Part shown: in pieces, positions 1,771 to 22,763 of the stretch
How positions within the stretch are numbered: position 1 is the first letter of the stretch
How the letters are laid out: each line of letters opens with the position of its first letter
Assembly: GCA_001599295.1 (NCBI GenBank)
Contig: BCGN01000004.1
Coordinates: 1,861,676-1,903,616 of the forward strand
Reading direction: 5' to 3'
Length of the DNA: 41,941 nucleotides
DNA from: Sporopachydermia quercuum
Taxonomy: Eukaryota
Notes under the pieces: generated by a model
The model's database searches: none
Seen by the model: only the letters and a program-made list of their open reading frames with translations
What the model was told of the DNA's origin: nothing
Translations under genes and position numbers: made by a program

Positions 1771-2628
1771 TATAGAATGGTTCAATTGTATCCAATAGAC
1801 ACCCACTATGTAGTTCGAGCTGCTGTATCTTTCACTGGTTCATCACCTGGTTGATCGCTTTCCTTTACGTTTCAGTAAATAAAGGAGATGGCTGATTGTT
1901 AGATTGGGTTGCTTATTGTCAGGCGAATTGATTAACATAAAATTCACATGTTTCGGGAAGTCTGATTGTTAGTTTCATTGTTAGGTTAGTCAGTAATGGT
2001 AAGAGTTGCCCCCTGGTATTGCCGTTAGGAAAATTGAGAAGCTTACTACTTTGGGTATTTTTGAANTGATAAGGATTTTTCTAAGAAATAATAGAAAAAA
2101 CTGAGAAAATATGAAGAATCGAATTGAATAACTGAATAACTATGAGAATTGTAAGATTATTAGCCATCCCAGTAGGTAAAAGCCATATCTTAGTTACAGG
2201 ATTCTTANTTTAGAAGTGTTTATAGTGTTGAGAAATTCCTCACTATGGTCTAGAAGAGTCTATTCATTGATTGCCGTAGCAAGTTTACTTTTATTCTACT
2301 TCAAATTGATATCTTGGTACTATATTATGACCATGGAATATGATATCAAATTATGCTGGGTAATTGCTTCATATATACATTTTGATAGAAAGTGTATTAC
2401 ATAATCAAATGAACCTTTCCATCAATATGCCTCGATGCTTATTGGATCTTTCTCTAACAAAGGAAAGTCATTAATAGTACTACAGCTGAATATATCCCCG
2501 CTTTGCCATAATCTATACATTATCCATTCACTGCCAATCCAAACTGTAGTAAAAACGTTTCCAGTGCCAATACGACCATTATTTGTGCCTTTCTCAGCTT
2601 TTAATTGTGCTTCTGTCCTANCATTACN

Positions 2629-3915
2629 CTAAACATCAAATTTGACAACTGGTTGATAATAGACTGGACACTTCCAATAACTCTGTTTCACACCATCCCA
2701 GACTTCATTTTCAACTTTCCAAACACTATCAGGAACATTATATAGTATAAACTCAGTCTTTAATCCATAATCTGCCAAATCTAGCTCCACAACTTTCTTG
2801 TAGACATCNTATGTAATTTGTCTATCAGCGCCAAGTCCATTGAAAAATGAAAATGTACCTTCAGGTTTCAATAGTCCAACAATCAAGTCAAATAAATCTA
2901 GCATATCTTCATACTTTTCACTGAAAGTGTCATAATAAATTCCATCGAAATATTCACCTTTCAGCAATAGTCCTGGTAATGTATCTTGCCATCTACCTTC
3001 CAATATTGTAACGTTCTCTTTTTCGTACCAACCATCTTCTTTCATCTTCTTCAAAACGTCAGGATGTGCTTCACAAATGATATGCGATTTCGGATTCATT
3101 TCCTGAATGAATGAATCAATTATCCCCAGTCCAAATCCAATGTTAATTATGCTAGCATTACTGGGGTCGTTGTCTTCTACTGACGAAAATAATGATTCTT
3201 CCCCCAATTTCATAATATCTGTCTCCCAATCCATCATCACACCATCTTTATGTTCTTTGGTAAGCAATCTACCATCCTCATACTGCAATTCTGTTTTTAA
3301 GTAAGTTTCCTGATTATGACTTGCATCAGACGTATTTCGAGCATTATCTTGTCCTTCCGATGATATGTTATCCACAATGAGGTTCTTTTCTTGTTCTGAT
3401 GCATCNTGAATCTCTTCTTTTGATATACTTATTAGTTCATTCTCATCCTTGTCTTCATCAGCTGTTCCAAGCTCTTCTATATCTTCTATGATCTCAATAG
3501 TATTATTTTCAACTTTTCTCAATAGCAGTTCTGCTCTAACTCCAGCAGCAACAAATTTCTCATAGATCAATCTATCAAGCTTCCTTCTATTACATATACA
3601 TCCCGGAGTTTCTAAATTTTTATCTAGTAATGCCCAACCTGCACCCCATTCAAATAAAACATCAATTAGCTTCAAAGCAACTTCCAATTCTTCCTTTTCT
3701 TGTTGTTCTCCATCCGCATCTTGTCGAGATGGGAATGTTTCCATTAAAATATGAAGACCTGTTGATCCATCATATCCTTCGTTTGATGTATCTTCAACAT
3801 CTTCAATTGTAGTGGTAGGAGATTCCCCTTTTTTCAGTAGCTGACGTAACTTATCGATTCTGTCACTTTTGAAGTTTCCTGTCTCATACTTGAATAAATC
3901 CAATAGTTCACTCAT
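2629..3915 (-). CDS. RMT2: Protein arginine N-methyltransferase 2 (Rmt2)
   Basis: GAGW..LD...ETPGC, GVRAELLL, DGVMMDWET, NIGFGLGIID, ICEAHP, GRWQD, FDGIYYDTFSE and FSFFNGLGAD motifs. First ATG at 3915; the ORF track starts at a TTG. Two ambiguous bases lie inside. Confidence 0.95.
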   Translation of the reverse strand: MSELLDLFKYETGNFKSDRIDKLRQLLKKGESPTTTIEDVEDTSNEGYDGSTGLHILMETFPSRQDADGEQQEKEELEVALKLIDVLFEWGAGWALLDKNLETPGCICNRRKLDRLIYEKFVAAGVRAELLLRKVENNTIEIIEDIEELGTADEDKDENELISISKEEIXDASEQEKNLIVDNISSEGQDNARNTSDASHNQETYLKTELQYEDGRLLTKEHKDGVMMDWETDIMKLGEESLFSSVEDNDPSNASIINIGFGLGIIDSFIQEMNPKSHIICEAHPDVLKKMKEDGWYEKENVTILEGRWQDTLPGLLLKGEYFDGIYYDTFSEKYEDMLDLFDLIVGLLKPEGTFSFFNGLGADRQITXDVYKKVVELDLADYGLKTEFILYNVPDSVWKVENEVWDGVKQSYWKCPVYYQPVVKFDV

Positions 3916-4165
3916 AATGGATGAAGATGGATAACTGAACACAACACTTGACGTATACCCAATGATCAAGTAGTACAAACCTTGAGAAAAAGAACAATCA
4001 ATAGGATCGGTTCAATGCCAAACTAAATGCTTTTTTAAAATAAAGAAAAGTATAAAGAAATCCATTGTATAATAGCATAAACTACTACAGAATGAATAAG
4101 AAAAAATAATCTTCAGAAGATAATGAAAAATAAAAAAATTATGAAAAAATCATATAAAAAAGTAA

Positions 4166-4237
4166 TTCCGATGCGGGGAGTCGAACCCCGGTTTGCCCGG
4201 TGAAAGCGGACCGTGCTAGCCGTTACACTACATCGGA
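4166..4237 (-). tRNA. tRNA-Glu, anticodon TTC, intronless
   Basis: Minus strand TCCGATGTAGTGTAACGGCTAGCACGGTCCGCTTTCACCGGGCAAACCGGGGTTCGACTCCCCGCATCGGAA has acceptor stem TCCGATG/CATCGGA, loop CT-TTC-AC and a GGTTCGACTCC T-arm. Confidence 0.96.
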
Positions 4238-4240
4238 TTC

Positions 4241-4749
4241 TGTAATAATGTGTTAGTGTCTGATCATACATCATTCAGTAAAATAAAATGAATTTTAAGA
4301 AAAATTGAAGAATTGTATTAGAATTCTTACTCTTTTTCCTTCTTCTCCTTCCTTTTCTTATTAATTAGAAAGAGAAGAATGAGAGTAAATAATCAGCGAA
4401 GTAAATAGTATATATATATAAAAGGTACAAATAGAAATATAGATAGATGTGAAATGCCAATGTGTCACGTGAAAGGTCACGTGGTTTAGTAATAAGTAAT
4501 GCATAGCTGGTTGTTACAAATAATTTTTTGCCTAATAGTATATAATGCAGTAAATAACAATGAAGAATTGTATTAAGATCCTTACCCCTTTTCATTCCTA
4601 TCCTATTTTTTATTATTAGAAAGAAAAGAGTAAAAATAATCNGCAATGTCAGTGTTCTAAATATGAAAGCTACAAAGAGGAATAATGAATAGTTGGAAGG
4701 TAATGTGTCACGTGGAAGGTCGCGTGGACTGAGTGATAAGTTTGTTACA
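4241..4749. repeat. Degenerate tandem duplication (~245-255 bp unit) directly upstream of the tRNA; possible solo-LTR relics
   Basis: Shared blocks are TGAAGAATTGTATTA (4307/4561), AATGTGTCACGTG.AAGGTC.CGTGG (4459/4702) and TTGTTACA (ending 4518/4749). The first unit starts TGTAATAA at 4241, a 7/8 inverted match to TTGTTACA. No target duplication found. Confidence 0.6.
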
Positions 4750-4832
4750 ACGGTCTAAAAAGTAGAACAGTGCTTAGACTTGAATTAATTAGCTTGATAA
4801 TGAATAGATGGGGATATCTTACTACGAAACAA

Positions 4833-4856
4833 TTTTTTTTTTTTTTTTTTTTTTTT
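4833..4856. repeat. Poly(T)24 tract
   Basis: Directly visible homopolymer. Confidence 0.9.
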
Positions 4857-5608
4857 GATAACGATTAATGATTCTATTTGAAACGCTCAGCCTGTACTAA
4901 GTTATCATTGACAATATTCNTGTGGTGGTAATTGATGGTAGGCAAAAAGATCCAAATTACCTGGCAACTGTAGACGAGAAAAGGATTCGCGATAAGGAAA
5001 CTCATAGATATGACGATACACGAGCGATAGTGTTATCGAATGGTTTATAGAGGTTAACATGAAATGCCTTTGGCAATTTCTCAATTTTGAATTTCTTTTC
5101 TTGTAAGCTTGAACACATTTTATACATACATATTGTTCATAATGCTGCTCTCCATTTCTTTAAGTATTTATGTATTATTGGGATATTACTATGCGTATCA
5201 AATTACTTCGGTATAATATTTAGGTTTTGCATCAAAACTAAACCTAAAGGCTGGTTGATAATTTAAATGACTTAAGCCCTCAACCTTAATTCTACTGGTA
5301 TGTTGTACGTAAAATTAAGATAACTGGGCAACAGCAAAAGAAATAGTATTGAGCTAGTCGTAGATCTTAGATAGGAGTTAATACTTGATTCTACCTTCAA
5401 CAAATGATTCTTATGCTAGATCGACATATTTTATGCTCTTCAATCTGTACACATGAGGAGTTCAAACAACCCGAGATCGTTCAAATTAGCAGCTAAGAAA
5501 ATCTCTAAGAGACCGTGTCGCTTTTTCTGTTGTATGACTTCCTTGCACCATTATCTACTTGTTGCGTTGCGTTGCTTGCGATGAACAANCTTCGAAGGTT
5601 TTACAACA

Positions 5609-7441
5609 ATGGTAGTTGCTACTGATAATATGAACATAATTCGGTTCAAGCTGGAGGGAGCTTGTAAGATTCACAAATCAAANAAATTTACAAGAAACCG
5701 AACAGGTTGTTTGAATTGTAAGAAAAAGAAGAGGAAGTGCGATGAAAGGAAACCAATCTGCAGTTCTTGCAAGAGGTCGAATAAAGAATGTTGCTATGAT
5801 ACTATTCTTAGTTTTAAATCAGAGAACATGATAACAAGAAGACATTGCGAGCCATTTGTTAGATTATCGAAGTATCAAATGGAGAACTGGCTGTTTCTTA
5901 ATTCAACTTGTGAAGACATCATGCTGTCACATTCAGTTAGTAGTGAATATGAGCATGATGATGAAACCTCCTGTCATTTTCGTTATAGTTTCAACACTGA
6001 GTTGCAACATAACAGGAAATTTACTATAGAGTACTTTGATACTCAAGTTGTCGAAACGTCAGGTAATCTTGATGATTCCGATGGAGCATTAGATTCTGAT
6101 GGAACAAATGAGAATGAAAATGTTGAAAGTACGACATGTGCTTTGCAAAAGCTAGTGCCAGCTGAGAATTTAGAGAAACAACTTTTCAATCACTATGTTT
6201 CGAATGTCAGTTGCAGAAAGGCTTTTGCTATAACCGAGCATAATGAATTCAAGTCACTCATCATACCAAATCTTGAAAAGTTTCCTGCTTTATTTGAAGC
6301 AGTTTTAGCCCTTTCAGCAAGTGATATGTTCCATAGAACAAGCGATACCACATTCAAAGAATTGGCCCTTAGATATAAAGAACAATCAATTAATAATCTC
6401 CATTCTGTTCTTGATCAACATGAGTCCAACGAAGTCTTTTTGAATAGTCGCGATGATAACGGAACCATCACAGGTCTCGTTTCCTGTATCTTAGTCTTAT
6501 GCACCTTAGAAATTGGGGATAAAAACAATTGTTCTTGGCATACTTACTTGAAAGAAGCTTCTTTGGTATTTTGCAATATTGAAGAAGCTGATATTCTCAA
6601 ATCTAATATTCTCAATTTTGCTTATCGCTATTTCACTCTACGATATATTCTTTTTCTTACAACAACCACTCAAGCAGAATTTGATATGTTTACTGAAACT
6701 TCTCCGTGGCCAATCTTAGACCGATTCTTTGATGATGATATTGTTGATCACGTTTTGGGCTGTTCACCTAGATTATTGCAGCAGATCTATTTAATCTCAA
6801 AACTGAGATTTAGTTTTCTTGATGAAACTATTACGTTAGCTGATTTCACTAATCAGTACGTTGATTTGTATGAAAAGTTGTCAAGTCTTGAACAGCAGAT
6901 CAGTGATTTCGCTAATAAAACTCAATCCGAGCAGTTATTACTTTGCTCAACAGCCTATCATTACAGCACTATGCTTTATTTTCATGTTTCTTTATCAAGG
7001 TTGGTAATAATGAAGAAAGCAAATGACGTTTCAACTATTAGTTTCCAATCCGAAATCAAGAAAAGATTCAAATCTGAATACTCTTATTATCCCAAACGAT
7101 TATTAAATCATTTGATCTCGTTACTAAGGAAAACAAGTATTCTATCTAAAGCTAATCAACAAGGCTGTCCTTTATTCCCAACTTGGTGTTTATTCATTTT
7201 ATCGGTATGCGATGGTTTCAGTTCTTCCCATGATATAGCAAAAGATCATGAATGTCAAAGAAGAACTGTTATGAAACTACTGAATTCTATTATTCAATTA
7301 TGGCCAAAATCATCTGTTCAAAAAATCAAAATTGCTATTGAAACAATTTGGAAAATTTTGGATTTAAATGCTGATTTGAAAGATTTAACTGATTGGAGAG
7401 AAGTTTTAGATAGAGCTGGTTTCAAACTTGCTTTGACATAG
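5609..7441 (+). CDS. Zn2Cys6 transcription factor of the Lys14/Uga3/Moc3 type (C-terminal Fungal_trans_2-like domain)
   Basis: KFTRNRTGCLNCKKKKRKCDERKPICSSCKRSNKECCY binuclear cluster. LFNHYVSNVS, ALFEAVLALSA, ILVLCTLEIGD..W and GCSPRLL motifs, with a C-terminal DWREVLDRAG. Confidence 0.9.
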   Translation: MVVATDNMNIIRFKLEGACKIHKSXKFTRNRTGCLNCKKKKRKCDERKPICSSCKRSNKECCYDTILSFKSENMITRRHCEPFVRLSKYQMENWLFLNSTCEDIMLSHSVSSEYEHDDETSCHFRYSFNTELQHNRKFTIEYFDTQVVETSGNLDDSDGALDSDGTNENENVESTTCALQKLVPAENLEKQLFNHYVSNVSCRKAFAITEHNEFKSLIIPNLEKFPALFEAVLALSASDMFHRTSDTTFKELALRYKEQSINNLHSVLDQHESNEVFLNSRDDNGTITGLVSCILVLCTLEIGDKNNCSWHTYLKEASLVFCNIEEADILKSNILNFAYRYFTLRYILFLTTTTQAEFDMFTETSPWPILDRFFDDDIVDHVLGCSPRLLQQIYLISKLRFSFLDETITLADFTNQYVDLYEKLSSLEQQISDFANKTQSEQLLLCSTAYHYSTMLYFHVSLSRLVIMKKANDVSTISFQSEIKKRFKSEYSYYPKRLLNHLISLLRKTSILSKANQQGCPLFPTWCLFILSVCDGFSSSHDIAKDHECQRRTVMKLLNSIIQLWPKSSVQKIKIAIETIWKILDLNADLKDLTDWREVLDRAGFKLALT

Positions 7442-8070
7442 TGTAACTTTACAGCTTTTATTTTATAGTTCAGTTTTGGTATTTGTTTCTTGTTATTACT
7501 GTTGTTTTAACTTAATGGTATTCTTGGTTTGATTTTAAGAATTGGTTTATAGGAATAATTAATAATGACATTTAATTGATTAAGTTATCTTTCTTATGTA
7601 GGTGATCACCAAAAAAAGGTTATGGATGATAAATTCTTTCTACAAATGATCAATTAAAAAGGGGCCAATACTCTTCTTCTAAATTCGAAGAACGAAAGGA
7701 AGTAACACTTTTCAGCAATCTTCCATTTCAACAAAGCTAGGAAGGCAGAAGAACTGAAACGGTTGATATTCCGTTTTGCATTACATTTACGGTCTTCCTC
7801 TTTCTCTCTTTACTTCTTAAATTGAATTTTTTTTTTTTTATTCAAGTATGGTTCTCATTGGCCACAACGATAATGGACAAGAGTCGAATGTACTGATACT
7901 ACTTTAATCCTACAATTTTGTTTCCAACTGCTATTATTGGGAAGAGAAGACTCATAATTGCTCATCATCCCTTCTGTATGAAAAGTCTAAAACAACGAAT
8001 AATTTGACGATTAATATGATGTTCTAGAAATGTTCTCAGAATCCCAATATCAAGAGTATAATACTTTCTG

Positions 8071-8088
8071 TCTCTCTCTCTCTCTCTC
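8071..8088. repeat. (TC)9 microsatellite
   Basis: Directly visible between the convergent TF and oxoprolinase-like genes. Confidence 0.85.
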
Positions 8089-8250
8089 AAGGATAAGTCT
8101 ACATTCTTTTATATTATCTACAAGTATTCAAAATATAAACAAACGAAAACAATTACCAATTACTTATTACCCTTATATAAAAAATTATAATCATATAAAT
8201 GAACCAACCAATATAAAATATCTACTGCAACAACAATTTTAGTAAGTTAA

Positions 8251-11200
8251 TTATTGTGAGGTCTTCATGGAATCATGGAAAGCAGAAACTGATCCATGAG
8301 CTCTTGGAATATTGACTTTTGTTTGTTGCTTACCATTTCCTTCACAATCACACTTTTCTTCAACAGGACCATAACCACCTCCACCTGGAGTTGAAATCTT
8401 AAGGATATCACCAGGATGAAACTCGATTTCTGCAGTAGGGCCCAAATGTTTCCAGAAGATCCTTTTACTCTTAGGATCAAATCTTCCTAATTGATTAAGG
8501 CCCCTACCACCATTTTCACCACCGGCCATACCGTAAGGAGGGAAAACTCTTCGCTGAGTTAAAACTGAACCGTGACAATCTTGAGTAAACTGCAGTTCTC
8601 TAATCAAACCATCACCGCCATTCCATTTGCCTCTACCACCAGATCCCTTTCTAACAGAGAATTGCTTCAACCAGCATGGATATCTTTGTTCCAAGACTTC
8701 AGGATCAGTCATAAGAGTATTGGTCATGTTACATTGAGTACCGCTAAAACCATTGAATCCATTACCAGCACCAGATCCACCCCCAATGGTTTCGCAAAAA
8801 CCGAAACCTCCGACGACTTCACCAGTCTTAGGATCAATACCACCTTGACCGAAACAAATACAATTCATGCAACCGTAAGATGCAGCAACAGTACCAAATG
8901 CCTTCAAGATAGTATCAGTGATCTTTTGAGAAGTAATACCATTCCCACCAGAAATAGCAGCAGTTGGGCCAGGATTGAGTAAACAGTTTTCAGGGATAAT
9001 AATGGTGATAGGATCCAGGACACCTTCATTCAAAGGTAAATCACCATCGGTGATATGACATCTCAAGCAGTAGGTAATACAAGCGCATACAACACACTTA
9101 GGAGCATTGAAACAATTGTAAGCTTCATCATCAGTACCCGTGAAATCAAATACTGCATCACCAGTTTCTTCATCAATATCAACGGAAACTTGGATTCTAG
9201 CGCCATCATCCATATAATCAACAGCAACTAGAGGTAATTGACCTCTCTTTTCAACAGCAACAGATTTCAAGAATCTTCGAACTGAATCAGATGAAGTGTC
9301 CTTGATAGCCTTCATATAGAATAACACGGTCTCAGTACCATACTCTCTAAAGACTTCTTGCAATAAAGAGATACCCTTACTATTAGCAGCAACCTGCGCC
9401 TTCAAGTCAGCAATATTATCTGCAACCTTTCTTGAGGGTGATGAGCCAGGTAACTTCATTGGTTCTTCAGTGAAATACTTATGAACACCATCATAATCAA
9501 ACTGACCATTTTGAACAACCTTCCAGGCAATAAATTTAGCACCTTCTTCGTCTAAGGAAGTAGCATTTGAATCCATACTACCAGCTTTAGTTCCACCGAT
9601 TTCAGCATGATGAGCTCTGTTACCAACATAGAATCTAATCTTACCATCAATAAAAACAGGAGAAATCAATGTTATATCAGGTAAATGAGAACCCATAGCA
9701 CTAGGATGATTGGTTGCTAAAATGTCACCGGGTTGAATATCACCATTCCAATGCTTAATTTGATATTTAACGGCAAACGACATAGAACTCAAATGAACTG
9801 GTACAGCTGGAGCATTAGCAACCAAGTTACCTTCATCATCAAATAAGGCACAAGAAAAATCCATTCTTTCCTTAATATTGGCACTGACTGATACCTTCTT
9901 CAAAGTAGAGCACATTGATTCAGCAATGGCCATAAACCTATGAGAGAAGATAGACAACTGAATATGATCAACAACGGTTGGCTTTTCAAGGTCGTTTCCC
10001 TTGGGTGATTGGTCCTTAACATCAATGATAACATGGTTAGTTAGCACAGTTAATTGAGAACCTGGTTCCAATAATAATGTTTGAGTAGCATCCAGAACTA
10101 ATGCTGGACCATTGATGATAGTTCCTTTCTCCAAATCTTCTAACTTATAAACTTTTGAAGATTGCAAGCCATTGTCAAAGTAAATATCAGTGGTCGTAGT
10201 TGCCTTGTCAGCAGAAACTTCCTTGGTTTGAATACTGTTCAATTCAGTGAAAGGAGCAGTATCTGAATTTGAGTTGTTGATATCAGCAAAAGCTCTAACA
10301 CGGATATCAGAAACAATAACATCTCTTGACTTATCATTAAATGAGAACTCTCGTTCATGTTCAATGTAGAATTGTTCAATAAAACTAAAGTTCTTTTTTT
10401 CTAAATCTTCTCTTATCATGATTTTAGAATCAGAGCCAGAATAACACATATTTAAGAAAATTTCGAATTGNATTAATTCTTCAGGAATATTTTGCTCAAG
10501 TAAAGATTTCTTGGACTTTTCTTTTAAAGCATCAATCTTTGGGACAATCTCATCATCAGCATTTTCTTTGTAAGGAATAGCAGTCGGTAGAATAGTTTCT
10601 TCGACAACATCAGCAAGAGCAATACCGTAAGCAGATAGNATAGAGGAGTACTTGTGAATTATAACTCTACTGATACCTAATTCTTTAGCTAGGGAATTAG
10701 CATGTTGGCCTCCAGCACCACCTAATGACACTAAGTTATGCTTAGAAATTTGGTAACCTTTATTTTCAGTCAACTGTCTCATTGGTTTAGCCATTGTAAC
10801 ATTGGCAACTTGTAAGAATCCATATGCAACTTCTAAAGGAGTCTTTGGCTTAGAGTTTGGATTATCAGCATTGATTTGATTCGCAAGTTTGGTAAATGCT
10901 TCAACAACTAGATCTTTATCTAGTGGTTCATCTTCGTTAGGACCGAAAATCTTAGGGAAGAACTCAGGTAAAATTCTTCCACACATTAGATTAGCATCAG
11001 TTATTGTTAAGAAGCCATTCTTCTTGTAACAAATTGGACCAGGATGGGCACCGGCAGATTCAGGGCCAACATTGTATAAATGATTCTTGTAGGTTAGAAT
11101 GGAACCACCACCAGCAGCAACAGTGTTGATATCTAACTGAGGAGCAGCGATCTTGATTCCTGCCACAGTGGTTTCAAAAATATGAGCATAATGTCCGTCA

Positions 11201-12210
11201 AATCTGGAGACATCACTAGAGGTACCACCCATATCAATGGCGATAGTTGGAGTACCATCATCCTTATCGTACGATGTTCGGGCAACACCAACAACACCAC
11301 CTGCAGGACCAGACAATAATGCCTTCAAACCGGTGAATTTATCATATTTACATAGACCACCATCAGACATCATGAATTCAAGTCTTGTATGCTTCGTGAA
11401 ATCTGATGAGAACCCTTTTAAAAGAGTTTTGATATAATCCTTGACGATCGGTGTCAAATAAGCATCCATACATGCTGAATGACCTCTATAAACAGCCTTT
11501 ATCATGGGTAAAAGTTCGTGGGATAGTGACACATTATCGAAACCAACTTCCTTTGCAATTTCCCCAATTTCCTTTTCATGCACNTGGAAGTTATAACCGT
11601 GAATCAAACAAACAGCTAAAGATTTAATAGATGGGTTCTTTTCCTTCAGCTCTAGTAATTGCTTCTTGGTTTTCTCTTTGTTCAATGGCTTTAATATTTG
11701 AACAACTTCATTAGTTGAACCAAGGACATATTCTTTGCCATCAACTAAATCTCTTGCATCATAACCAGTAGCATCTTCGGTAAATGCAGGTAGTGTAACT
11801 CTTTCTTCTACTTCAATTACTTCTTTATACAGGACACCAGGCTTAACGATTTCAAAGGCAAACAAATCAGGTCTTGCTTGATCACCAATGTGCAACATAT
11901 CCTTAAAACCTTCAGAAACGATCAAAGCAAAATCCGAACCCTTTCTCTCCAGTAAGGCATTTGTTGCGACGGTTGTACCAAGTCTAATGTTAGAAATTGG
12001 TGTAGTATCTAAGGGGACTCCTCTTGGGATCCTTTGATCAGTGATTTGTTCTAACACTCTTCTTATACCTTCAATGTTGGCATCTTCATAATTACTTGGA
12101 TCAACAGAAAGAAGTTTGAAATATATATCTGGTTGGCCAGGAACAATAGCTAGAACATCGGTGAATGTTCCACCTCTGTCTAAATTGACTGTGACACCTT
12201 CAATAGTCAT
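8251..12210 (-). CDS. 5-oxoprolinase family ATP-dependent lactamase (fused hydantoinase A+B), divergent OXP1-like paralog
   Basis: 1319 aa with DRGGTFTD, GTTVATNALLERKG, LSGPAGGVVG, DMGGTSSDVSR, INTVAAGGGS, VGPESAGAHPGP, DFSCALFD and TPGGGGYG. Several canonical B-domain residues are altered (see findings). Confidence 0.95.
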   Translation of the reverse strand: MTIEGVTVNLDRGGTFTDVLAIVPGQPDIYFKLLSVDPSNYEDANIEGIRRVLEQITDQRIPRGVPLDTTPISNIRLGTTVATNALLERKGSDFALIVSEGFKDMLHIGDQARPDLFAFEIVKPGVLYKEVIEVEERVTLPAFTEDATGYDARDLVDGKEYVLGSTNEVVQILKPLNKEKTKKQLLELKEKNPSIKSLAVCLIHGYNFXVHEKEIGEIAKEVGFDNVSLSHELLPMIKAVYRGHSACMDAYLTPIVKDYIKTLLKGFSSDFTKHTRLEFMMSDGGLCKYDKFTGLKALLSGPAGGVVGVARTSYDKDDGTPTIAIDMGGTSSDVSRFDGHYAHIFETTVAGIKIAAPQLDINTVAAGGGSILTYKNHLYNVGPESAGAHPGPICYKKNGFLTITDANLMCGRILPEFFPKIFGPNEDEPLDKDLVVEAFTKLANQINADNPNSKPKTPLEVAYGFLQVANVTMAKPMRQLTENKGYQISKHNLVSLGGAGGQHANSLAKELGISRVIIHKYSSXLSAYGIALADVVEETILPTAIPYKENADDEIVPKIDALKEKSKKSLLEQNIPEELXQFEIFLNMCYSGSDSKIMIREDLEKKNFSFIEQFYIEHEREFSFNDKSRDVIVSDIRVRAFADINNSNSDTAPFTELNSIQTKEVSADKATTTTDIYFDNGLQSSKVYKLEDLEKGTIINGPALVLDATQTLLLEPGSQLTVLTNHVIIDVKDQSPKGNDLEKPTVVDHIQLSIFSHRFMAIAESMCSTLKKVSVSANIKERMDFSCALFDDEGNLVANAPAVPVHLSSMSFAVKYQIKHWNGDIQPGDILATNHPSAMGSHLPDITLISPVFIDGKIRFYVGNRAHHAEIGGTKAGSMDSNATSLDEEGAKFIAWKVVQNGQFDYDGVHKYFTEEPMKLPGSSPSRKVADNIADLKAQVAANSKGISLLQEVFREYGTETVLFYMKAIKDTSSDSVRRFLKSVAVEKRGQLPLVAVDYMDDGARIQVSVDIDEETGDAVFDFTGTDDEAYNCFNAPKCVVCACITYCLRCHITDGDLPLNEGVLDPITIIIPENCLLNPGPTAAISGGNGITSQKITDTILKAFGTVAASYGCMNCICFGQGGIDPKTGEVVGGFGFCETIGGGSGAGNGFNGFSGTQCNMTNTLMTDPEVLEQRYPCWLKQFSVRKGSGGRGKWNGGDGLIRELQFTQDCHGSVLTQRRVFPPYGMAGGENGGRGLNQLGRFDPKSKRIFWKHLGPTAEIEFHPGDILKISTPGGGGYGPVEEKCDCEGNGKQQTKVNIPRAHGSVSAFHDSMKTSQ

Positions 12211-12720
12211 TTTCAGCGATTGATTTNGATTTGATTATAAAGATAGGGAATCGCAAAAGTTTGATTCAAGCAACTAACACAGCTTAGTAGACAATCGAAT
12301 AGAACCAGCTATCTTTATGGAAGAAAACAACAAATAAATGAATAGAAAAATAGAAGAGATTAAATCCTGTGAATGAGAAACAGGGTGTAGATAGGTATAA
12401 GTAATAATTTCTTTCTTGTAGTTGATAGGTTGGAATCAAAGGATGTGGAGAAGAAGAATCTGTGAGCGGGTCGAGTTACCCATGCGAAGTATGTTTGAAA
12501 AGAAAGCTAGTAAAACCTAGACTTCTAAAAAGTAACTCAATAGGTAATCCAAAATTCTAAGGATATTAGTTGCTTCTTACCATGGTAAGCTGGGTATTGC
12601 AGTGGTGGTTAACATTGTTGAGATTAAGTCAGAACCATGGACTAACTAACTCTCTAAGAGNTTTTCACTGAAAGGAAGTAATATCCACAATTCCCAAAAA
12701 GGGTTTAAGGTTGATAATTG

Positions 12721-13458
12721 CAAATTTAACAAATTTCTAAAACTAAGGTAAGGAGAAAGACTAAGTTGGAAATTTTAGATAAGTACTTAAAATGGATTTA
12801 TAAAGTTGACGCAGATTTCAAAACCAATAATATGTCTTGATGTNTTGAGGGAAAGAGGGAGTAGAAACGAACACCAATCTAGATTGCAGGAAATATAATC
12901 GTTTGCTCCGTACTAACTATCTACTTGTCTCAATATCCAGGTGACCTTACAATGAGAGTTTGTCAATAAATTCACAATCTAGAGCTTTTATATGAAACTT
13001 CTCCAATAAATTATTGAAGATGAAAGAACGGACTTTATGTTCCGTTGCAGAAATTAAGTTGAACATTTTGTAAACTTTATATTTGACCGTTAGGGTTTTC
13101 GTTTCCTATAGTTTGCCTATGCGTTTCTCATTTTCTTATCAAGCTACTGTTAGCAGATCATTCTCTAGAAAACGATGAGCTTTTCACAACATCTTTTAGT
13201 GTTTAAGATAATTCTTGTTTGTTTTCTCTAGCTAGTAAACTTTAACTTCTAATCTAGTCATCATTCAATATCTTTGACAGAAGTTCGCATACTCTATCCT
13301 TGAATTATTAGCTCCACCGTAGGACTATCTCTGTACTTGATTTTTTGATACCATTTACGTTTGTACTTAAGAACTACGTATAAACCTGAACTTTAATACT
13401 GACAACATAGATTAGGTAAGTCAACTTTAACCTTAGTTTTAGAAATTTGTTAAATTTG
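12721..13458. mobile_element. Non-autonomous MITE-like element, 738 bp, perfect 29-bp TIRs, 6-bp TSD (TAATTG)
   Basis: 12721-12749 CAAATTTAACAAATTTCTAAAACTAAGGT is the exact reverse complement of 13430-13458. TAATTG flanks both ends (12715-12720, 13459-13464). A further inverted 10-mer lies at 12801-12810 / 13420-13429. No ORF inside in the ORF track. Confidence 0.7.
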
Positions 13459-14141
13459 TAATTGTACCCGACGAACTATTTAAGGAAACTAACTGATAAG
13501 ATCACATAGAACAATGGTTTGAATGAAAGAGAGTATAAGAGAATAGATAGCATATGAATAGTATTATTTTCTATTTCTGAAACCCTGAAAATCATAATTA
13601 ATAATTTTATTTTTAATCCCTATCTTGTATTAGTAGCTTTAACTTAAAAGCGAAAATGCTCATTTAGGAACCATTGGTGTGTCTCAATCTAAGGAAGAAA
13701 CATAGAACCCGATTGCTATATTTGAAAGTTGAGATTGTCAACCTTGACGATTTGATCTACTTGTAATATTATTATAATATGTAGCGAAGATTTGTAATNT
13801 AATAACTATGATGATATTCATTTGGTAAACAAGCCACGAAAGTTGGGTCTGGATCTGCAATTCACAATAGGTCAGAATTTCACACACTCCGTGACATTAA
13901 GAGGTACCACTTATCAATACACGTAAGGTATATGCGACTGATATTATTCTTCTCTTAATAATTCTATGAATTAGATTACTATAGATTCATTAATGTAGTT
14001 GAATAAAACATCTGTAATAAATTATTTCTACATTACAAGTTGATACGAGCAATATAAACTAAGCAACATTTATCATTCTATACGCTTGGCAGAACATATA
14101 AAGCCAAAATATTAAAGCTGAAAGCTCCTGTTTTATCAGTT

Positions 14142-15440
14142 TCACAACTTGCTAAGTCTTTTGCTTACAACTTCTTCTTTGACCCAGCTCTTAATATCCT
14201 TGAAGTCAAGGTTTTCACTGACGACTCTCCATTCACATTCTTCTTGGCTGAATTCTTTAGTGTCTTCTCTCCATCTCCATTTCTTCGATAAGCTCTCAGA
14301 AAGCTCGTTATCTATTTTTTGAACTATGTATTTGCCAATGTTTGGAAGTAATTTGAAAGCATGTCCACTATCGCCTGTTGCAACTAATACATTCTTATAT
14401 GATGGTAGTTTATCGATGATGAAATGTGAATCAGAAGTATCAGCAATCCAACAACATTTACTATCAATTAAGTCATGATAAGCCAACTCAGGGACATACT
14501 TGCCCAAGATTTGTTTAACTTGGGCAACACATTCGCTTGGAATTGTATCTTCAGGGTGATTGTTTTTATATCTAGGTAACGATTTATCCTTAATATAGTT
14601 AGTTGTACCAGAACCTGGAAGAGCAATCTTCAGTAATCTTGTTTCTGGATCAGGAGGGAAAAAGTAACCCATTTCTGCATCGAAAAGAATAGGAACATCT
14701 TTAAACTTTTCATACTCGGCATCCGTCAATCTAATGTGAGATACAAATAATCCAACTGCACTTTGCTGCTGCTGTAAATCAACAATATATCCGGTACCAG
14801 CTCCTGATGCTACAATAATAAGTTCACCAGAAATTTTAGAACCATCAGCACATTCAACAGATTCCACACCAGTTTTAGAGTCTTTACTAATACCAACCGC
14901 TTTACCAGCATCACCGAAAACAAATTTGACGCCTAAACTTCTTGCCTTTTCATATGCAGCTCTCAGAGAGTTAGCAGCATGAGCTAGGCCACATTCTTGA
15001 TTGAACTTCCATTCAAGTTCCGGGCTACCACTATTATACTCAAAGAATGAAAATCTCTTGGCTAGAGCTTCACCACTCTTATGGAATTCAATTTTTTGTC
15101 CTTCGCCGGGAATCTTTCTCAGTGTCTCAATACTTTCTATTTCAAATTTTCTTCTTCCCTCATGATGCAACGGAGTGATTTGAACTCTGCCACATTCACT
15201 GAAGTGAGGTTTGTAGATTGGACTATGTTTCCATTCATGATAGGCTTCAACCGCCATATCACAATATTCAAGATCAGTGTACTCATTTCTAATAATTTTA
15301 TTAATATCATTAGCAGCTGACCAAGCTGATGGTACTGGATAAGCATCAATAGCTGTAATCCTATAATCAGGGTGCTTCTCAGCAAGGTGAACTGCCGTCG
15401 AAAGACCAAGGACACCGCATCCAACGATTACAACTTCCAT
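14142..15440 (-). CDS. FAD-dependent oxidase of the sarcosine/pipecolate/fructosyl-amino-acid oxidase family, most like S. pombe Fap2 L-saccharopine oxidase
   Basis: VIVGCGVLGLSTA dinucleotide fold, PVPS..SAANDINKI, ECGR, HI.LTD.E, FPP.P.T.L.K.A, CWIADT (flavinylation Cys region), GDSGHAFKLLPNIG and WRWRED..EWR. The C-terminal SKL suggests peroxisomal targeting (PTS1). Confidence 0.88.
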   Translation of the reverse strand: MEVVIVGCGVLGLSTAVHLAEKHPDYRITAIDAYPVPSAWSAANDINKIIRNEYTDLEYCDMAVEAYHEWKHSPIYKPHFSECGRVQITPLHHEGRRKFEIESIETLRKIPGEGQKIEFHKSGEALAKRFSFFEYNSGSPELEWKFNQECGLAHAANSLRAAYEKARSLGVKFVFGDAGKAVGISKDSKTGVESVECADGSKISGELIIVASGAGTGYIVDLQQQQSAVGLFVSHIRLTDAEYEKFKDVPILFDAEMGYFFPPDPETRLLKIALPGSGTTNYIKDKSLPRYKNNHPEDTIPSECVAQVKQILGKYVPELAYHDLIDSKCCWIADTSDSHFIIDKLPSYKNVLVATGDSGHAFKLLPNIGKYIVQKIDNELSESLSKKWRWREDTKEFSQEECEWRVVSENLDFKDIKSWVKEEVVSKRLSKL

Positions 15441-17457
15441 TATTAATGACGTTCTATCAATCTAATTAATTTTGTTTCACTCAGAAAAACCCTTTTCTTA
15501 GCTTTGTCAATTCTGTGTTCTATATGATCGCAAATTATAACTAAGATACTTGTGAACGATCAAGCTGAGTCAGAACCTTTTTCCAATATTGATTCAGAAA
15601 CTATTGCTTTATACTTTCCAATAATTAAGGCCAGTAATATCAATCTCAAAAGAAATGATTGAATCAACAGCTGATTGTAAAAATCGTGGAACGTATGAGG
15701 TTATAAATTGGAGTGAGAGCAATCAGATGCGATAGAAATATCATCATTTCTTTGAATTCTCCAAACACATCCTACTAAGTTTCTATGAGAGCAAAAAATC
15801 AATTCATCCCATCGGAAACACTAGCCACTCGTATTGCAGTTATCAATCAGATTTAGAAATATTATTCAAAGTTTCTTTCAATAGCGCAGGTGTCAGACGA
15901 TCAATTATTGTTGGAAGTCAGCTTGAAATGTAGAATTGCTTGGGTTCAGTGATACTGAATGTGGTAAAATCTTTCAACGGCACACGTATTACCAGAATAG
16001 GCATGATGTTCTTCTGTGTTTTAGATTGAAGCTTAAATTAAGTTAAGGTTTGAATCATTAAGTACCTCTCAATATAGAATCCGATAATCATTTCAATTCT
16101 CTTTTTTATGGTTGTTGGGCTGATCATTATAGCACAATAGTGGAATATGAATCCCACACCCTTGCATTGGGTAACTATGATGAACTCATTCTCGAGTGGT
16201 TATTATTTGCTATGGAGCGCGGAGTAGTTTCGATTGGAAATTATAAAGTTCAGCGCAGTAGGTAGCAGATCACAAGCAATAGATATATTTCTCTAGTATA
16301 AATTATTATTCTCACACTATTGAAAGTCTATGGTCTACATAGTATATTGAATAATACCACCGGCATGTGCCGTTAGTTGGGGTCCAAAGAATACATTTGT
16401 CGGTATGAATCCCCTCTTTAGTGTAGTAGATTGGACTGCATGCACTCTATTTGCTTCTCCCTTTAATTAGTATAAATTGCATGTATAAATCACTTTATTG
16501 TAGATTTGCGCTGAAATATCATTATTGTTCTTCTTCTTCGTGATAGGGAAATGTCAAGATAGGAGGACGGTAATGTCTCCTTCTTTGATGGATAAATGCT
16601 TAAGTATAAATAAGGTTGGTACTAAATATAAGCTTAACAGAATAAGGTTTAAAAGATTTGATAAAATTGTACTATCTATCCGACATACCTGATTCAAGCC
16701 TCGCTTGAATTGCATTTTTTATCACTTGCTCGATGATAATGATGACTTGACAAGTTTCCTTTAACTTAGAACTATTATTCGTTAAGAGTCTATAGATGGT
16801 AAGAGAAAGGCGCGTATTTTATAACAATTTTCTAGTTATTAATTTACTTGGCAGAGATATTATTCTTTCGTACATGAATTGGTAGCTGGTATCACTGTTT
16901 CTCTTCCAATACTAATTTAATGTTTAATTTGCTCCTGAAGTTCATCTGTCATAATAAAAAGTTGAAGAAGCATCAATCAAGTGAAATTCTAAAGGAAAAT
17001 TATTTTATACTGAAGAAAAGCTTGTTTATCTAGTTACTGAGCTTGGGCCATCTATTCTTTCGTTGATAATCATATTACTTGTCATCTAACTGAGCTTTCA
17101 ATAAGTAGTTTCAAACCCGATAAGAAGATTTGCAGATACGCTTGCTAAAAGAAGTTGATGGTTCATACTTCCCTTTCTCCACTTTCCTTTGATCTAGCCT
17201 ACTGATATCTGTTATAATACTGTTGTCTTCTGCATCTTGTTTCAGAAGTTTATAAATGCAAGTGAGAATCCCACTCTTTAAATTTATTTGATCATTTGAG
17301 TCTCTCTCTTTCTGCCAAATAAACATAATCAATCAACAAACGACTTGTAAATAACATCACTGGTTTGAGTTATTGAAAGTATAGTTAAAATAAACTATAC
17401 ATTGAAACAAGAATATCGTTTACACAACATTTATATTGTTCGTCTAATTGTTTTAAA

Positions 17458-19023
17458 ATGGATTCAAACACCGAATCAAACACTAGTATCGAGAAATCTC
17501 AACCAAAGGTTCAAGTTGGTGAACTCGAAACTCAATCTTCAGCACCTTCAAATAAGGATATTGAGAATTCTAAAGATCTTGATGCTGGTGCTCAATTTTT
17601 AATTTTGCACGCAGATAAATATGCTGATTACACTGAAGATGAAGCAAGAAAGGTTTTGAGAAAAATTGATTGGAATCTTATGCCAATTATGACACTTGCT
17701 ATAACATTTGCTGCAGCCGATAAGATTATCATTTCCAATGCTGCTCTTTATGGTATGAAAACTGATGCCAATCTTGTCGGTCAGCAATATTCTTGGATCG
17801 GATCTATCTTTTATTTTGGTTATTTGGCTATGGAATTACCTGCAAACATTATGCTACAAAGGTTTCCAATTGGCAAATGTTTATATGGTTCTTTCTTCTT
17901 TTGGGTTTCAATTTTACTTTTGATGGCCGCTGGCCATAATTTTGGCTCGCTAGCTGCTCTCAGGTTCTTATTGGGTATGGGTGAAACTTTTCTTTTCCCT
18001 GCATCAACTGTCATTACTTCTATGTTTTACAAAAAATCAGAACAACCTATTAGAAACGCTATCTGGTTTTCTGGGTTTTCTTCATTGATTACCGGTATTC
18101 TTTCTTACGCTATTGGTCATGCTGATTCTGCTATTGCCAACTGGAAACTACTTTTCATTGTTTTTGGCTGTATTACTTTTGCCATTACTTGTGCAATGGT
18201 CTATTTTATTCCTGATTCTCCAATGACTTGTCGTTGGTTGACTGAAAAGGAAAGATACATTGCAGTTGATAGAACTAAGGCAAATAGAACTGGTACTAAA
18301 AACTCAAAACTGAAGAGAGAACAAGTTATTGAAGCTTTAACTGATCCCAAATCGTGGCTAATGTGTATTTTTGTTTTATGTTTCAACATTCCTAATGGTG
18401 CCTTGGTTACCTTCGCTGCTCAAATTGTTAGCGGAATGGGTTACGGACTTCTCCAAACTACATTACTAGGTATGCCAACCGGTGTTTTCATGACATTTTC
18501 TTCATGGGTTATTGCTGGTGGTACTCATTTCACACCAAAGAAATACAAGTCTGTTGCTATTGCTTTAGTTGGTCTTGTCCCCTTAGTTTGTTGTGTTTTA
18601 ATTAAAGAGTTGAACCCAGATACTACCAACAAAAATGGTTTACTAGTTACTTATTATTTCTTCTACTTTTACTGGGGTCCTTATGTTGGTATGCTTTCTT
18701 TGTCTATGGCAAACACTTCTGGTCATACTAAGAAGACAATTGTGAACGCTATGAATTTCATTTCATACTGTGTTTCTAACATCATCGCACCACAATTCTT
18801 CAAAGCAAGTGAAGCCCCTCATTACAGAACTGGTTATAGTGCAATTTTAGGTTTTGTTTCCGCTGGTATTGTTACTATCATCTGTTACGGATTTTTATGT
18901 GTTTACGAGAATAAGAAGAGAGATGAGCTTTATGGCAAACCATCTTTGGACTATAATCCAGACGAGGATTCTTTGGATTTGACTGATAGGCAAAAGGCCA
19001 ACATATTTAGATATAGTTGGTAA
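17458..19023 (+). CDS. MFS transporter, allantoate permease (DAL5/ACS) family
   Basis: KVLRKIDWNLMP, QYSWIGSIFYFGYL, LRFLLGMGE, FYKKSEQPIR, IPDSP..CRWLTEKE, EALTDPKSW, NTSGHTKK, NIIAPQFF, ENKKRD, DLTDRQ..FRY; about 12 hydrophobic segments. Confidence 0.93.
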   Translation: MDSNTESNTSIEKSQPKVQVGELETQSSAPSNKDIENSKDLDAGAQFLILHADKYADYTEDEARKVLRKIDWNLMPIMTLAITFAAADKIIISNAALYGMKTDANLVGQQYSWIGSIFYFGYLAMELPANIMLQRFPIGKCLYGSFFFWVSILLLMAAGHNFGSLAALRFLLGMGETFLFPASTVITSMFYKKSEQPIRNAIWFSGFSSLITGILSYAIGHADSAIANWKLLFIVFGCITFAITCAMVYFIPDSPMTCRWLTEKERYIAVDRTKANRTGTKNSKLKREQVIEALTDPKSWLMCIFVLCFNIPNGALVTFAAQIVSGMGYGLLQTTLLGMPTGVFMTFSSWVIAGGTHFTPKKYKSVAIALVGLVPLVCCVLIKELNPDTTNKNGLLVTYYFFYFYWGPYVGMLSLSMANTSGHTKKTIVNAMNFISYCVSNIIAPQFFKASEAPHYRTGYSAILGFVSAGIVTIICYGFLCVYENKKRDELYGKPSLDYNPDEDSLDLTDRQKANIFRYSW

Positions 19024-21161: not shown

Positions 21162-22763
21162 TCAAGCTGTATTTATCAGCTCTCGAGCGTATGCTTCTTC
21201 AATACCCATATTGGTATCAGGGCCAGAGTAAGTATTTTTTCCCCTAATCATCCACCATATGGAAGACAATATAAACACCGCGCCGATAATCACGCAAGCA
21301 TAATTCATATTATCTGCCGCAACAGGCATGGTAGCAGGGAAATTGAAGAATATAATCATGAAAACAATCCAGCCAGCGGCAAGAGTGTTGATAATGGGGC
21401 CCTTCACTTTGCCTAATGGAAAAGTTGTTGGCTTCATGTATTTTCTTCGACCAGCGAGAAGTAATCCAATGGGAAACAAAAATGAGATGTTCGCAAGTAA
21501 TACATTACATCCTACAAGTGCATTAAATGCAGTACTGCTTCCAACGTAAATACAGCCTAGAACAGTCATGACAGCCCAAGTCAGCAAAGCAGCATTTCTA
21601 GGCACTTTCAGAGTAGGATGAATTATACTCAGCTTATCAGAGTAAGGTAATCCGCCATCTCTTGAAAAAGCCCAAATAAGTCTGTTGGCAGTTTGCATAG
21701 TATTGACCGTAGCACACATAGTGAGGAAAAACAAGATACTTAAAAGAAAAATCGCAGCACCTTTATTTTTGGTTGCTAGATAAAATACTTCAAGGATAGG
21801 TACTCCAGTTGTGGTGTTCAGAATTTTATCCAAATCAACCATACAGAAGCAAATACAAATAGCAGTAACAATCATGGTGAAGAAACCAATTGCCACAGTG
21901 CCAACCAAAATTTTCGGTAGAACTTTTCTAGCGTCTTTAATCTCCTCAGCGCAATGAACTGCTCCATCAAGGCCTCCAAAGGCAAATGCAGGATTTGTCA
22001 GTCCTACAATGAATGCAATACCGTTGGATTTCCATCCTGTATTATTAGTGAAAGTAGCAAAAACAAACCGAGCACTTTGCTTAGGGTATGCAGAACCCAC
22101 CATAGTAAAATTCACCAAGAAGAATGAAAACAAACAGATTCCAAAGCAGACTTTATTGAAATACGGCATGATCTTATGTCCATAGATATTCATCACAGTA
22201 AAAATAGCACAACAGCCTTCATAAACAAGAAATCCTTGCCAACGATGATATTCTACTGAAGGGTTGGCCAATATAATCATAGCAATAAGAAACTGACCCA
22301 AAATAATATTCACTGAAGCTCCTACCACGCACCAACCAACAGTATTGAACCATCCACAATACCAACTTAACAAAGGTCCCCATTTCTTGGAAGCTAACTC
22401 ATATGTCCAATGATATTGTCCTCCAGACGTAGGATAAGCCCCTGCGATCTCTCCTAAAGATAACGCTACACATAATGTGAAAAAAGAAACCCCTACAGAA
22501 CCATAAATTAACATGACAGTACCACCAGATCCGATACCTGTGGCCAATGATCCAATAATACCAGACCATGAGTCAACAATCATGAAGGAAAAGGATAAAA
22601 TAGCCAGCTTGGACATATTTCTTTCTAATACTGGTTTATAGCCAGTTTTCAGTAAATCTATATCATCTTCGTTAAGACCTTGGAATTTTTCATCCATTTG
22701 AGCAGATTCGGAGGAGCCCACTTCGCTCTTAACTGTTAATACTGTGTCAACTGTTTTACTCAT
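21162..22763 (-). CDS. APC-superfamily ACT-family permease (HNM1 choline / UGA4 GABA permease-like)
   Basis: SLGEIAGAYPTSGGQYHWT, NNTGW..GIAFIVGL, GLDGAVHCAEEI, RLIWAFSRDGGLP, GSSTAFNA and P...PV...NMNYA motifs. Confidence 0.92.
   Translation of the reverse strand: MSKTVDTVLTVKSEVGSSESAQMDEKFQGLNEDDIDLLKTGYKPVLERNMSKLAILSFSFMIVDSWSGIIGSLATGIGSGGTVMLIYGSVGVSFFTLCVALSLGEIAGAYPTSGGQYHWTYELASKKWGPLLSWYCGWFNTVGWCVVGASVNIILGQFLIAMIILANPSVEYHRWQGFLVYEGCCAIFTVMNIYGHKIMPYFNKVCFGICLFSFFLVNFTMVGSAYPKQSARFVFATFTNNTGWKSNGIAFIVGLTNPAFAFGGLDGAVHCAEEIKDARKVLPKILVGTVAIGFFTMIVTAICICFCMVDLDKILNTTTGVPILEVFYLATKNKGAAIFLLSILFFLTMCATVNTMQTANRLIWAFSRDGGLPYSDKLSIIHPTLKVPRNAALLTWAVMTVLGCIYVGSSTAFNALVGCNVLLANISFLFPIGLLLAGRRKYMKPTTFPLGKVKGPIINTLAAGWIVFMIIFFNFPATMPVAADNMNYACVIIGAVFILSSIWWMIRGKNTYSGPDTNMGIEEAYARELINTA

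Follow-up and report, generated by a model that had tools for sequence, protein, structure and literature searches.

A conserved, apparently undescribed budding-yeast gene cluster that pairs a 5-oxoprolinase paralogue with a Fap2-like oxidase: a candidate pathway for lactam catabolism

The 41,941-nucleotide stretch of Sporopachydermia quercuum contig BCGN01000004.1 analysed here (the window) carries, at positions 5609 to 19023, four adjacent genes for a transcription factor, an ATP-dependent lactamase of the 5-oxoprolinase type, a Fap2-like oxidase and a DAL5-like permease. We conclude that these constitute a real, conserved and apparently undescribed catabolic cluster, the mechanism of which we infer. 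The conclusion is founded on the gene content, intact catalytic motifs in the enzymes, a type 1 peroxisomal targeting signal (PTS1) on the oxidase, a gene order kept between species, the paralogue status of the lactamase and the co-divergence of the two enzymes. Our preferred reading, to which we give somewhat less than even confidence, is that this is a pathway-specific budding-yeast cluster for a cyclic-amide (lactam) nitrogen compound, in which the enzymes would act one after the other on a single imported compound class.

Gene content of the cluster

Open reading frames (ORFs) of at least 100 amino acids (aa) were called with the standard code between positions 4000 and 21000 of the window, and the ORF listing holds exactly four, coinciding with the genes placed there by the initial annotation of this DNA; their Pfam assignments bear out its description of four adjacent cluster genes. 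The putative pathway regulator (5609..7441, + strand, 610 aa) is followed by the lactamase (8251..12210, −, 1319 aa), the oxidase (14142..15440, −, 432 aa) and the permease (17458..19023, +, 521 aa). Oxidase and permease lie on opposite strands and point apart across an intergenic region of 2017 bp (15441..17457), so that the divergent arrangement proposed earlier is evident from the strands. The two spacers internal to the cluster, 12211-14141 and 15441-17457, are about 2 kb long (1.9 and 2.0 kb), and the long spacers contain no other ORF of at least 45 aa except short ones inside or beside the genes. Scattered single N bases in the window leave one X in the regulator and three in the lactamase, with both frames intact. 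At the ten CTG codons of three of the cluster genes, 721 of the 729 aligned homologue residues are Leu, Ile, Val, Met or Phe, one is Ala and none is Ser; this alignment indicates that the organism reads CTG as leucine, and the translations under table 1 are therefore right. Seven window proteins, translated under codes 1 and 12, were looked up for exact matches in the protein collection, and none was present.

The lactamase is a fused HyuA/HyuB-type protein in which four Pfam domains follow one another in a single chain (Hydant_A_N, E 4e-46; Hydantoinase_A, 7e-99; Hydant_A_C, 9e-7; Hydantoinase_B, 1e-182). For the bacterial caprolactamase, the accessible part of PMC8453981 defines the ASKHA ATP motifs DxGGTxTD, DxGGT and GxxPGP together with an Asp-His-Asp-His metal site. 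The window protein has all three motifs intact in translation, as DRGGTFTD, DMGGT and GAHPGP, and its D784, H842, D845 and H867 align with the CapB metal ligands Asp41, His99, Asp102 and His124, so that domains, ATP motifs and metal site all place it in the hydantoinase/oxoprolinase family of ATP-dependent lactamases. Its C-terminal domain is 45-52% identical to 5-oxoprolinase-type proteins of an aphelid, an insect, a chytrid and a trypanosome. The best match among solved structures, 7hk5, was deposited as an N-methylhydantoinase and aligns over the whole length (E 1e-100, 341 bits), a match far weaker than that to the eukaryotic 5-oxoprolinases. The chain ends in -TSQ, as do all its relatives, and has no PTS1.

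The oxidase, an FAD-dependent amine oxidase of Pfam family DAO (E 5e-31), is 41% identical to the Schizosaccharomyces pombe protein that NCBI names L-saccharopine oxidase, and the nearest solved structures are fructosyl amine and fructosyl peptide oxidases (E 1e-62 to 1e-48). It keeps the covalent-FAD cysteine (Cys330), Lys271 and the GDSGH motif. In the fructosyl peptide oxidase PnFPOX the fructosyl group is recognised by Trp235, Glu278, Gly372 and a loop arginine, according to the available part of PMC5459902. The window oxidase has Leu231 in place of Trp235 and Pro275 in place of Glu278; it retains the glycine, within GDSGH, and the loop arginine finds no confident alignment. All 33 of the relatives aligned are likewise non-Trp and non-Glu at these two positions, and the leucine at the tryptophan position is common to the window oxidase and Fap2. 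An amadoriase identity is ruled out by Leu231 and Pro275, and the fructosyl or Amadori lactams that the initial annotation had listed among alternative substrates are disfavoured by the same two residues. An identity as monomeric sarcosine oxidase (MSOX) was also rejected, MSOX chains matching at about 1e-14 as against 1e-62 for fructosyl amine oxidases. On its residues we class the protein as a Fap2-type enzyme and not an amadoriase; it has the sequence characters of the Fap2/L-saccharopine oxidase subfamily, whose reaction, the conversion of L-saccharopine to glutamate and aminoadipate semialdehyde, it may share. Its C-terminus, SKL, fits the PTS1 pattern [SAC][KRH][LM], so that both parts of the earlier description, a Fap2-like oxidase with a PTS1, are upheld. 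Canonical PTS1 ends occur in 10 of 28 members of the oxidase clade, and ends of the form [KR][LMFI] in 21 of 28.

The permease matches MFS_1 (E 1e-28) and no other Pfam family. Allantoate permease is the name given to homologues that are 42-49% identical to it, one of them listed by JGI as ‘MFS transporter, ACS family, allantoate permease’; at the level of these fungal annotations it probably belongs, as had been claimed, to the DAL5-like anion:cation symporter (ACS) group of the major facilitator superfamily (MFS). The regulator matches Zn_clus (E 4e-8) and Fungal_trans_2 (E 7e-32), an Atlas search with it gave generic Fungal_trans_2 clusters only, and by its sequence we regard it as a generic Zn2Cys6 protein of the Zn_clus plus Fungal_trans_2 type. 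The Lys14/Uga3 type named in the initial annotation is a putative assignment.

Linkage across species

The initial annotation had proposed a search for conserved linkage. This was carried out, and the cluster genes prove to be adjacent in other species. Scanning metagenome contigs by alignment to the oxidase yielded 80 loci that were kept, 26 of them at least 14 kb long. One 16-kb contig (L001), whose oxidase is nearly identical to a protein of Sungouiella intermedia, has the complete set of four, with order and relative orientation preserved, as a mirror image of the window: a permease (4927-6468, −, 64% identical to the window protein), an oxidase (6799-8088, +, 55%), an oxoprolinase (8622-12551, +, 66%) and a Zn_clus/Fungal_trans_2 regulator (12661-14244, −, 31% over 439 aa). 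Its oxidase and permease are also divergent, across a spacer of 330 bp, and its counterparts of the two long spacers measure 0.33-0.53 kb as against the roughly 2 kb of the window. A comparison of CGG-Nx-CCG and related sites, covering every spacer in the window and in this contig, found none common to both, which with two species is a weak test.

Among the best 120 matches to the lactamase, 15 proteins stand at 66-70% identity and the next at no more than 57%. The 15 include Pachysolen PACTADRAFT_71566, Priceomyces PRCAT00004259001 and Millerozyma Piso0_001420, as well as oxoprolinases of C. jaroonii, Sungouiella intermedia and Yamadazyma tenuis. If locus-tag order is taken as gene order, the oxoprolinase, oxidase and permease of Priceomyces carsonii are neighbours (PRCAT00004259001, 4260001 and 4261001), as are the permease, oxidase and oxoprolinase of Millerozyma farinosa (Piso0_001418, 1419 and 1420). 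P. carsonii has in addition a second, rearranged trio of oxidase, permease and oxoprolinase (PRCAT00002159001, 2160001 and 2161001). The three Pachysolen proteins are all assigned to a scaffold of the same length, 1,081,017 bases. The adjacency recurs in other species and is therefore more than chance, and the linkage across species by which fungal metabolic gene clusters are recognised is present.

The association does not extend to the wider oxidase family. In other fungi the distant amadoriase-like oxidases generally have no linked oxoprolinase, and of the 26 loci that reach 14 kb or more two contain one. The first is the mirror-image contig; the second (L042) is an intron-bearing fungal contig in which an oxoprolinase (−), a DAL5-like permease (+) and an oxidase lie within 9 kb (2566-11416), the oxidase belonging to another subgroup of the Fap family with the motif KAWSVAH. 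The permease-oxidase adjacency of this contig is repeated on five short ones (L024, L045, L046, L052 and L053). At a fap2-like locus whose oxidase is 39% identical to that of the window (L002), and which we guess to be S. pombe-like, there is neither an oxoprolinase nor a permease within 10 kb.

Paralogue clades and co-divergence of the enzymes

Oxoprolinase trees were computed with FastTree (n = 84) and with IQ-TREE in quick mode (n = 37). Proteins of an aphelid, chytrids and insects supplied the root of each, joined in the FastTree by one from a trypanosome. In both trees three yeast clades stand out, with a support of 100 for every one of them. Clade A comprises 16 rows including the window protein; clade B comprises 10, including Priceomyces 2161; the widespread clade C comprises 39, from Pichia, Ogataea, Kuraishia, Scheffersomyces, Cyberlindnera and Saccharomycopsis, with Priceomyces 4980 and Pachysolen 85065. 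The window lactamase thus falls in a distinct clade and is not of the widespread yeast type, in agreement with the initial annotation, which had called it a divergent 5-oxoprolinase paralogue. S. cerevisiae OXP1 is absent both from the best 120 oxoprolinase matches and from the best 150 representatives returned by a search with the C-terminal domain; clade C is likely the OXP1 clade. Those 150 representatives, which served as outgroups only, include no close relative of the yeast clades A to C; the fungal row nearest to them is almost always that of Saitoella, a yeast of the Taphrinomycotina, and the ten looked up by name are non-Dikarya or unnamed. Within the best 120 matches Priceomyces and C. 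jaroonii have paralogues of all three clades, Pachysolen of A and C, and Y. tenuis of A and B; Millerozyma and Sungouiella have clade A alone among the matches listed.

Three motifs distinguish the clades. They are conserved in the outgroups, Saitoella and filamentous fungi as PGSMP, NAPH and ASQGC, except that the second reads NAPN in filamentous group F2 and the third ASHGC in group F1. Each yeast clade has changed them in its own way: to AGSMD, NAPA and ASYGC in clade A, to PGSCA, NAPH and ASsGS in clade B, and to PGSSS, NAPN and ATGGC in clade C. In the window protein M879 aligns with CapB Tyr136 and position 802 adjoins CapB Ile60 and Ile62, both of which PMC8453981 assigns to the pocket; the changes specific to clade A thus adjoin positions lining the CapB pocket.

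Linkage follows the same division. With contigs of equal length within the best-120 lists taken as a proxy for the same contig, a contig is shared with a listed oxidase or permease by 10 of 15 clade-A oxoprolinases, 4 of 10 in clade B and 2 of 39 in clade C (A against C, Fisher test p = 7e-6), and one of the two linked clade-C cases, on a 1.7-Mb scaffold, says little. In the oxidase tree, from which a fragment of Y. tenuis was left out as too short, all nine partners of clade-A oxoprolinases fall in one clade of 29 rows (clade a, support 99), and three of the four clade-B partners fall in a separate clade of 14 rows (clade b, support 100), the fourth, from C. arabinofermentans, lying elsewhere in the tree. 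The window permease belongs to a yeast clade of 23 rows (support 99) whose members share contigs with oxidase and oxoprolinase, and the second Priceomyces trio combines enzymes of clades B and b with a permease like those of type A. The trees thus indicate that the two enzymes have co-diverged deeply and that the permease has not.

A proposed pathway and its alternatives

In the pathway that we tentatively favour the DAL5-like permease would import an anionic lactam, and the cytosolic clade-A oxoprolinase paralogue would open its ring at the expense of ATP to give a secondary amine, of which an N-substituted glutamate is the simplest case. In the peroxisome the Fap2-like oxidase would then cleave the C-N bond, releasing glutamate, an aldehyde or ketone, and H2O2, while the adjacent Zn2Cys6 factor would provide pathway-specific control of the genes. 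That the enzymes act sequentially on one compound, in this order and on this class of substrate, and that the regulator governs them, we infer from the arrangement described above. N-substituted 5-oxoprolines fit both enzymes, because the Fap2 substrate is an N-alkyl-glutamate, and would include lactams of secondary amines derived from 2-oxoglutarate, such as saccharopine. As the substrate class they are possible and rather doubtful, and saccharopine lactam in particular is a very improbable substrate. The wider picture, in which budding yeasts carry cassettes that have been duplicated and diverge together (types A and B and perhaps others) and that scavenge N-substituted pyroglutamates, we hold with reserve as the less probable outcome. 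Each such cassette would consist of a 5-oxoprolinase-derived lactamase, a peroxisomal Fap2-like oxidase and a DAL5-like permease, and its substrates would be lactams of opine-like amines derived from 2-oxoglutarate, or lactams from food or plants.

Several observations weigh against this interpretation. The lactim tautomer of the substrate is believed to be the form that ATP-dependent lactamases attack, by phosphorylation or carboxylation (PMC8453981 and PMC11033972); tertiary lactams form no lactim, so that ring opening of N-substituted pyroglutamates would need a different activation. The initial annotation had proposed lactam opening followed by oxidation, and the conserved, co-diverging pairing of the enzymes speaks for that general form, while the N-substituted substrate it named meets the lactim problem. 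Since the oxidase has a PTS1 and the oxoprolinase has none, the intermediate would also have to enter the peroxisome. Oxoprolinase-permease pairs with no adjacent oxidase are common in filamentous fungi, and the core oxoprolinase-permease module may handle plain 5-oxoproline. In the permease tree the type-B protein of Priceomyces stands as close sister to those of type A. Clades A, B and C, the unlinked C included, each retain 86% of the positions invariant in the outgroups, so that clade A is distinct without being uniquely derived. The term ‘pyrosaccharopine’, which the initial annotation used for its example substrate, was not found in the literature searched, and in the search listing ‘fructosyl pyroglutamate’ is frequent in plant and food metabolomics papers and ‘pyrosaccharopine’ appears in none.

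The alternative that survives best, which we nevertheless judge unlikely, is a module for plain 5-oxoproline (pyroglutamate), in which the permease imports the compound, the oxoprolinase converts it to glutamate, the regulator senses it and the oxidase is chemically independent, a co-located nitrogen scavenger for saccharopine, pipecolate or another secondary amine. Such a substrate has the N-H required for a lactim, and the C-terminal identity of 45-52% puts the enzyme within the eukaryotic 5-oxoprolinase family. The oxoprolinase/DAL5-like pairs for which no oxidase was listed, on shared contigs or with consecutive tags, suit this view; they occur in Cirrosporium (M1834_005011/5012), Talaromyces, Xylariales, Thozetella, Diplodia, Myriangium and A. 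karnatakaensis. As far as the available text of PMC12157680 describes it, a 17-kb element of Zygosaccharomyces origin carries an OXP1 orthologue with a transporter and two regulators, and in the available part of PMC7067042 the Cryptococcus neoformans oxoprolinase genes CNAG_06872/06873 are up-regulated together with the DAL5-like CNAG_06875. A yeast transporter for 5-oxoproline was, moreover, stated in 2026 to be unknown (PMC13398684). What this alternative leaves unexplained is why an oxidase is adjacent in every fully visible type-A cluster and why oxidase and oxoprolinase have co-diverged, A with clade a and B with clade b; it would also make several enzymes for a simple substrate redundant, as clade-A species often have one or two further paralogues.

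Less probable again is scavenging on the lysine branch, in which the oxidase turns imported saccharopine (or pipecolate) into aminoadipate semialdehyde/Δ1-piperideine-6-carboxylate (P6C) and the oxoprolinase opens 6-oxopipecolate to 2-aminoadipate. 6-Oxopipecolate arises from aminoadipate or P6C and, being a secondary lactam, can form a lactim, and among characterised proteins the oxidase stands nearest to the one annotated as L-saccharopine oxidase. Related lactamases accept six- and seven-membered N-H lactams such as valerolactam and caprolactam, in the portions of PMC11033972 and PMC8453981 available. Nothing about the window enzyme, however, points to a preference for a six-membered ring; neither the window nor its mirror-image contig holds an aminoadipate-semialdehyde dehydrogenase or any other lysine-pathway gene, and the S. 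pombe-like fap2 locus has its oxidase with no oxoprolinase or permease nearby.

The two enzyme families of the cluster are also the two signature families of the bacterial creatinine pathway, and DAL5-type permeases carry N-carbamoyl amino acids, from which a lower creatinine pathway could be constructed: the paralogue would be an ATP-dependent N-methylhydantoinase, the oxidase would demethylate sarcosine, and the deiminase and carbamoylsarcosine amidase would be encoded elsewhere. N-Methylhydantoin retains N-H at the bond cleaved, and 7hk5, the best structural match, was deposited as just such a hydantoinase. We think this quite improbable: the lactamase is much nearer to eukaryotic 5-oxoprolinases than to that structure, the oxidase is related to monomeric sarcosine oxidases at about E 1e-14 and to the amadoriase/Fap group at 1e-62, and no amidase or deaminase is found in the window or in the mirror-image contig.

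That the four genes are mere neighbours, a chance synteny kept by descent, is compatible with the long spacers of the window and the lack of a promoter motif common to it and the mirror-image contig, and is the least probable of these alternatives, because the adjacency survives at 55-66% protein identity, spans the CTG-Leu window, Pachysolen, and Priceomyces, Millerozyma and Sungouiella (which we take to be CTG-clade yeasts that read CTG as Ser), recurs as a rearranged second trio in Priceomyces and as a trio in the intron-bearing fungal contig, and is strongly clade-specific.

The initial annotation had claimed that no yeast cluster of this kind was described, and none was found in the literature searched, which took in few subscription journals and no supplements, so that a listing in some large-scale catalogue of clusters is possible. 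The component families are known; as far as can be told what is new is their combination, together with its conservation and duplication. Conserved metabolic clusters known from budding yeasts are few, and a nitrogen-catabolic one now joins them. If our lactam reading is true, the cluster gives a testable role both to the Fap2-type oxidases, which have an in vitro activity and as yet no known physiological context, and to the extra yeast oxoprolinase paralogues, annotated just ‘5-oxoprolinase’, and it points to the missing yeast transporter of 5-oxoproline or its derivatives. Should the wider cassette picture hold, the lactamase would be the first eukaryotic one for tertiary lactams, the oxidase the first of Fap2 type with a physiological role and the permease the first yeast transporter of the 5-oxoproline compound class. 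A lactamase that opens substituted lactams would widen the chemistry of the ATP-dependent family, which is of interest for mild lactam hydrolysis, as the accessible part of PMC11033972 indicates.

Surroundings of the cluster

Upstream of the cluster regulator, a spacer of 1.7 kb contains a tRNA-Glu gene (anticodon UUC, 4166-4237, −). Downstream of the permease are genes for an APC-family amino-acid permease (21162-22763, −), a PhyH-family dioxygenase (24368-25255, +) and, beyond the latter, a second Fungal_trans regulator (26318-28069, +). These three may form a second small nutrient cluster; an extension of the cluster to include them was rejected, since the neighbours in the mirror-image contig differ. 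Further along, a GT25-family glycosyltransferase gene (31547-32773, 408 aa) is followed by an ORF of 126 aa (33655-34035) whose middle repeats part of the glycosyltransferase and which looks like a truncated duplicate. The G+C content rises to 0.46 at 34001-36400, from about 0.33-0.36 elsewhere in the window. Two Cys-rich ORFs lie there side by side (34707-35618 and 35665-36363), perhaps parts of a single gene interrupted by an intron or a frameshift.

Comparison with known systems

Ring opening followed by oxidative C-N cleavage is the logic of opine-lactam catabolism in Agrobacterium and of the nmp cluster for N-methylpyrrolidone. The initial annotation had drawn the Agrobacterium parallel; a search for agropinic acid together with lactam or hydantoinase listed no paper in which that term occurs. 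The lamA/lamB genes of Aspergillus nidulans, with AmdR, are a fungal lactam cluster under a product-sensing regulator, the lam genes coming from another enzyme family.

The oxidase belongs with S. pombe Fap2 and the amadoriases to one group of DAO-fold flavoproteins, sharing with them the covalent-FAD cysteine, the lysine and GDSGH. It differs from Fap2, which has no PTS1, in ending in SKL, and from the amadoriases in having Leu231 and Pro275 where these have the fructosyl-recognising Trp and Glu, residues that are likewise replaced in Fap2-like yeast proteins generally.

Closest in family and motifs to the lactamase among bacterial enzymes with a defined lactam substrate are the caprolactamase CapAB of P. 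jessenii and OplAB of P. putida, and the available portions of PMC8453981 and PMC11033972 make clear that other lactams, too, can be substrates of family members that carry an oxoprolinase annotation. According to the same portions CapAB and OplAB have split subunits, are 26-29% identical to eukaryotic oxoprolinases and take unsubstituted N-H lactams. Unlike the window lactamase they have no Fap-type oxidase as a partner. The 17-kb Zygosaccharomyces-derived element of S. cerevisiae strains resembles the window in joining an oxoprolinase homologue to a transporter and regulators; it also has a flocculin-like gene, and the accessible text of PMC12157680 reports no oxidase and treats it as a mobile element, not a pathway. 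S. cerevisiae OXP1 and mammalian OPLAH have the same fused HyuA-HyuB build as the window lactamase, with a similar length and the same four Pfam domains. What sets the window lactamase apart from the eukaryotic 5-oxoprolinase is its position in clade A, its linkage to an oxidase and a permease, and the change of three motifs.

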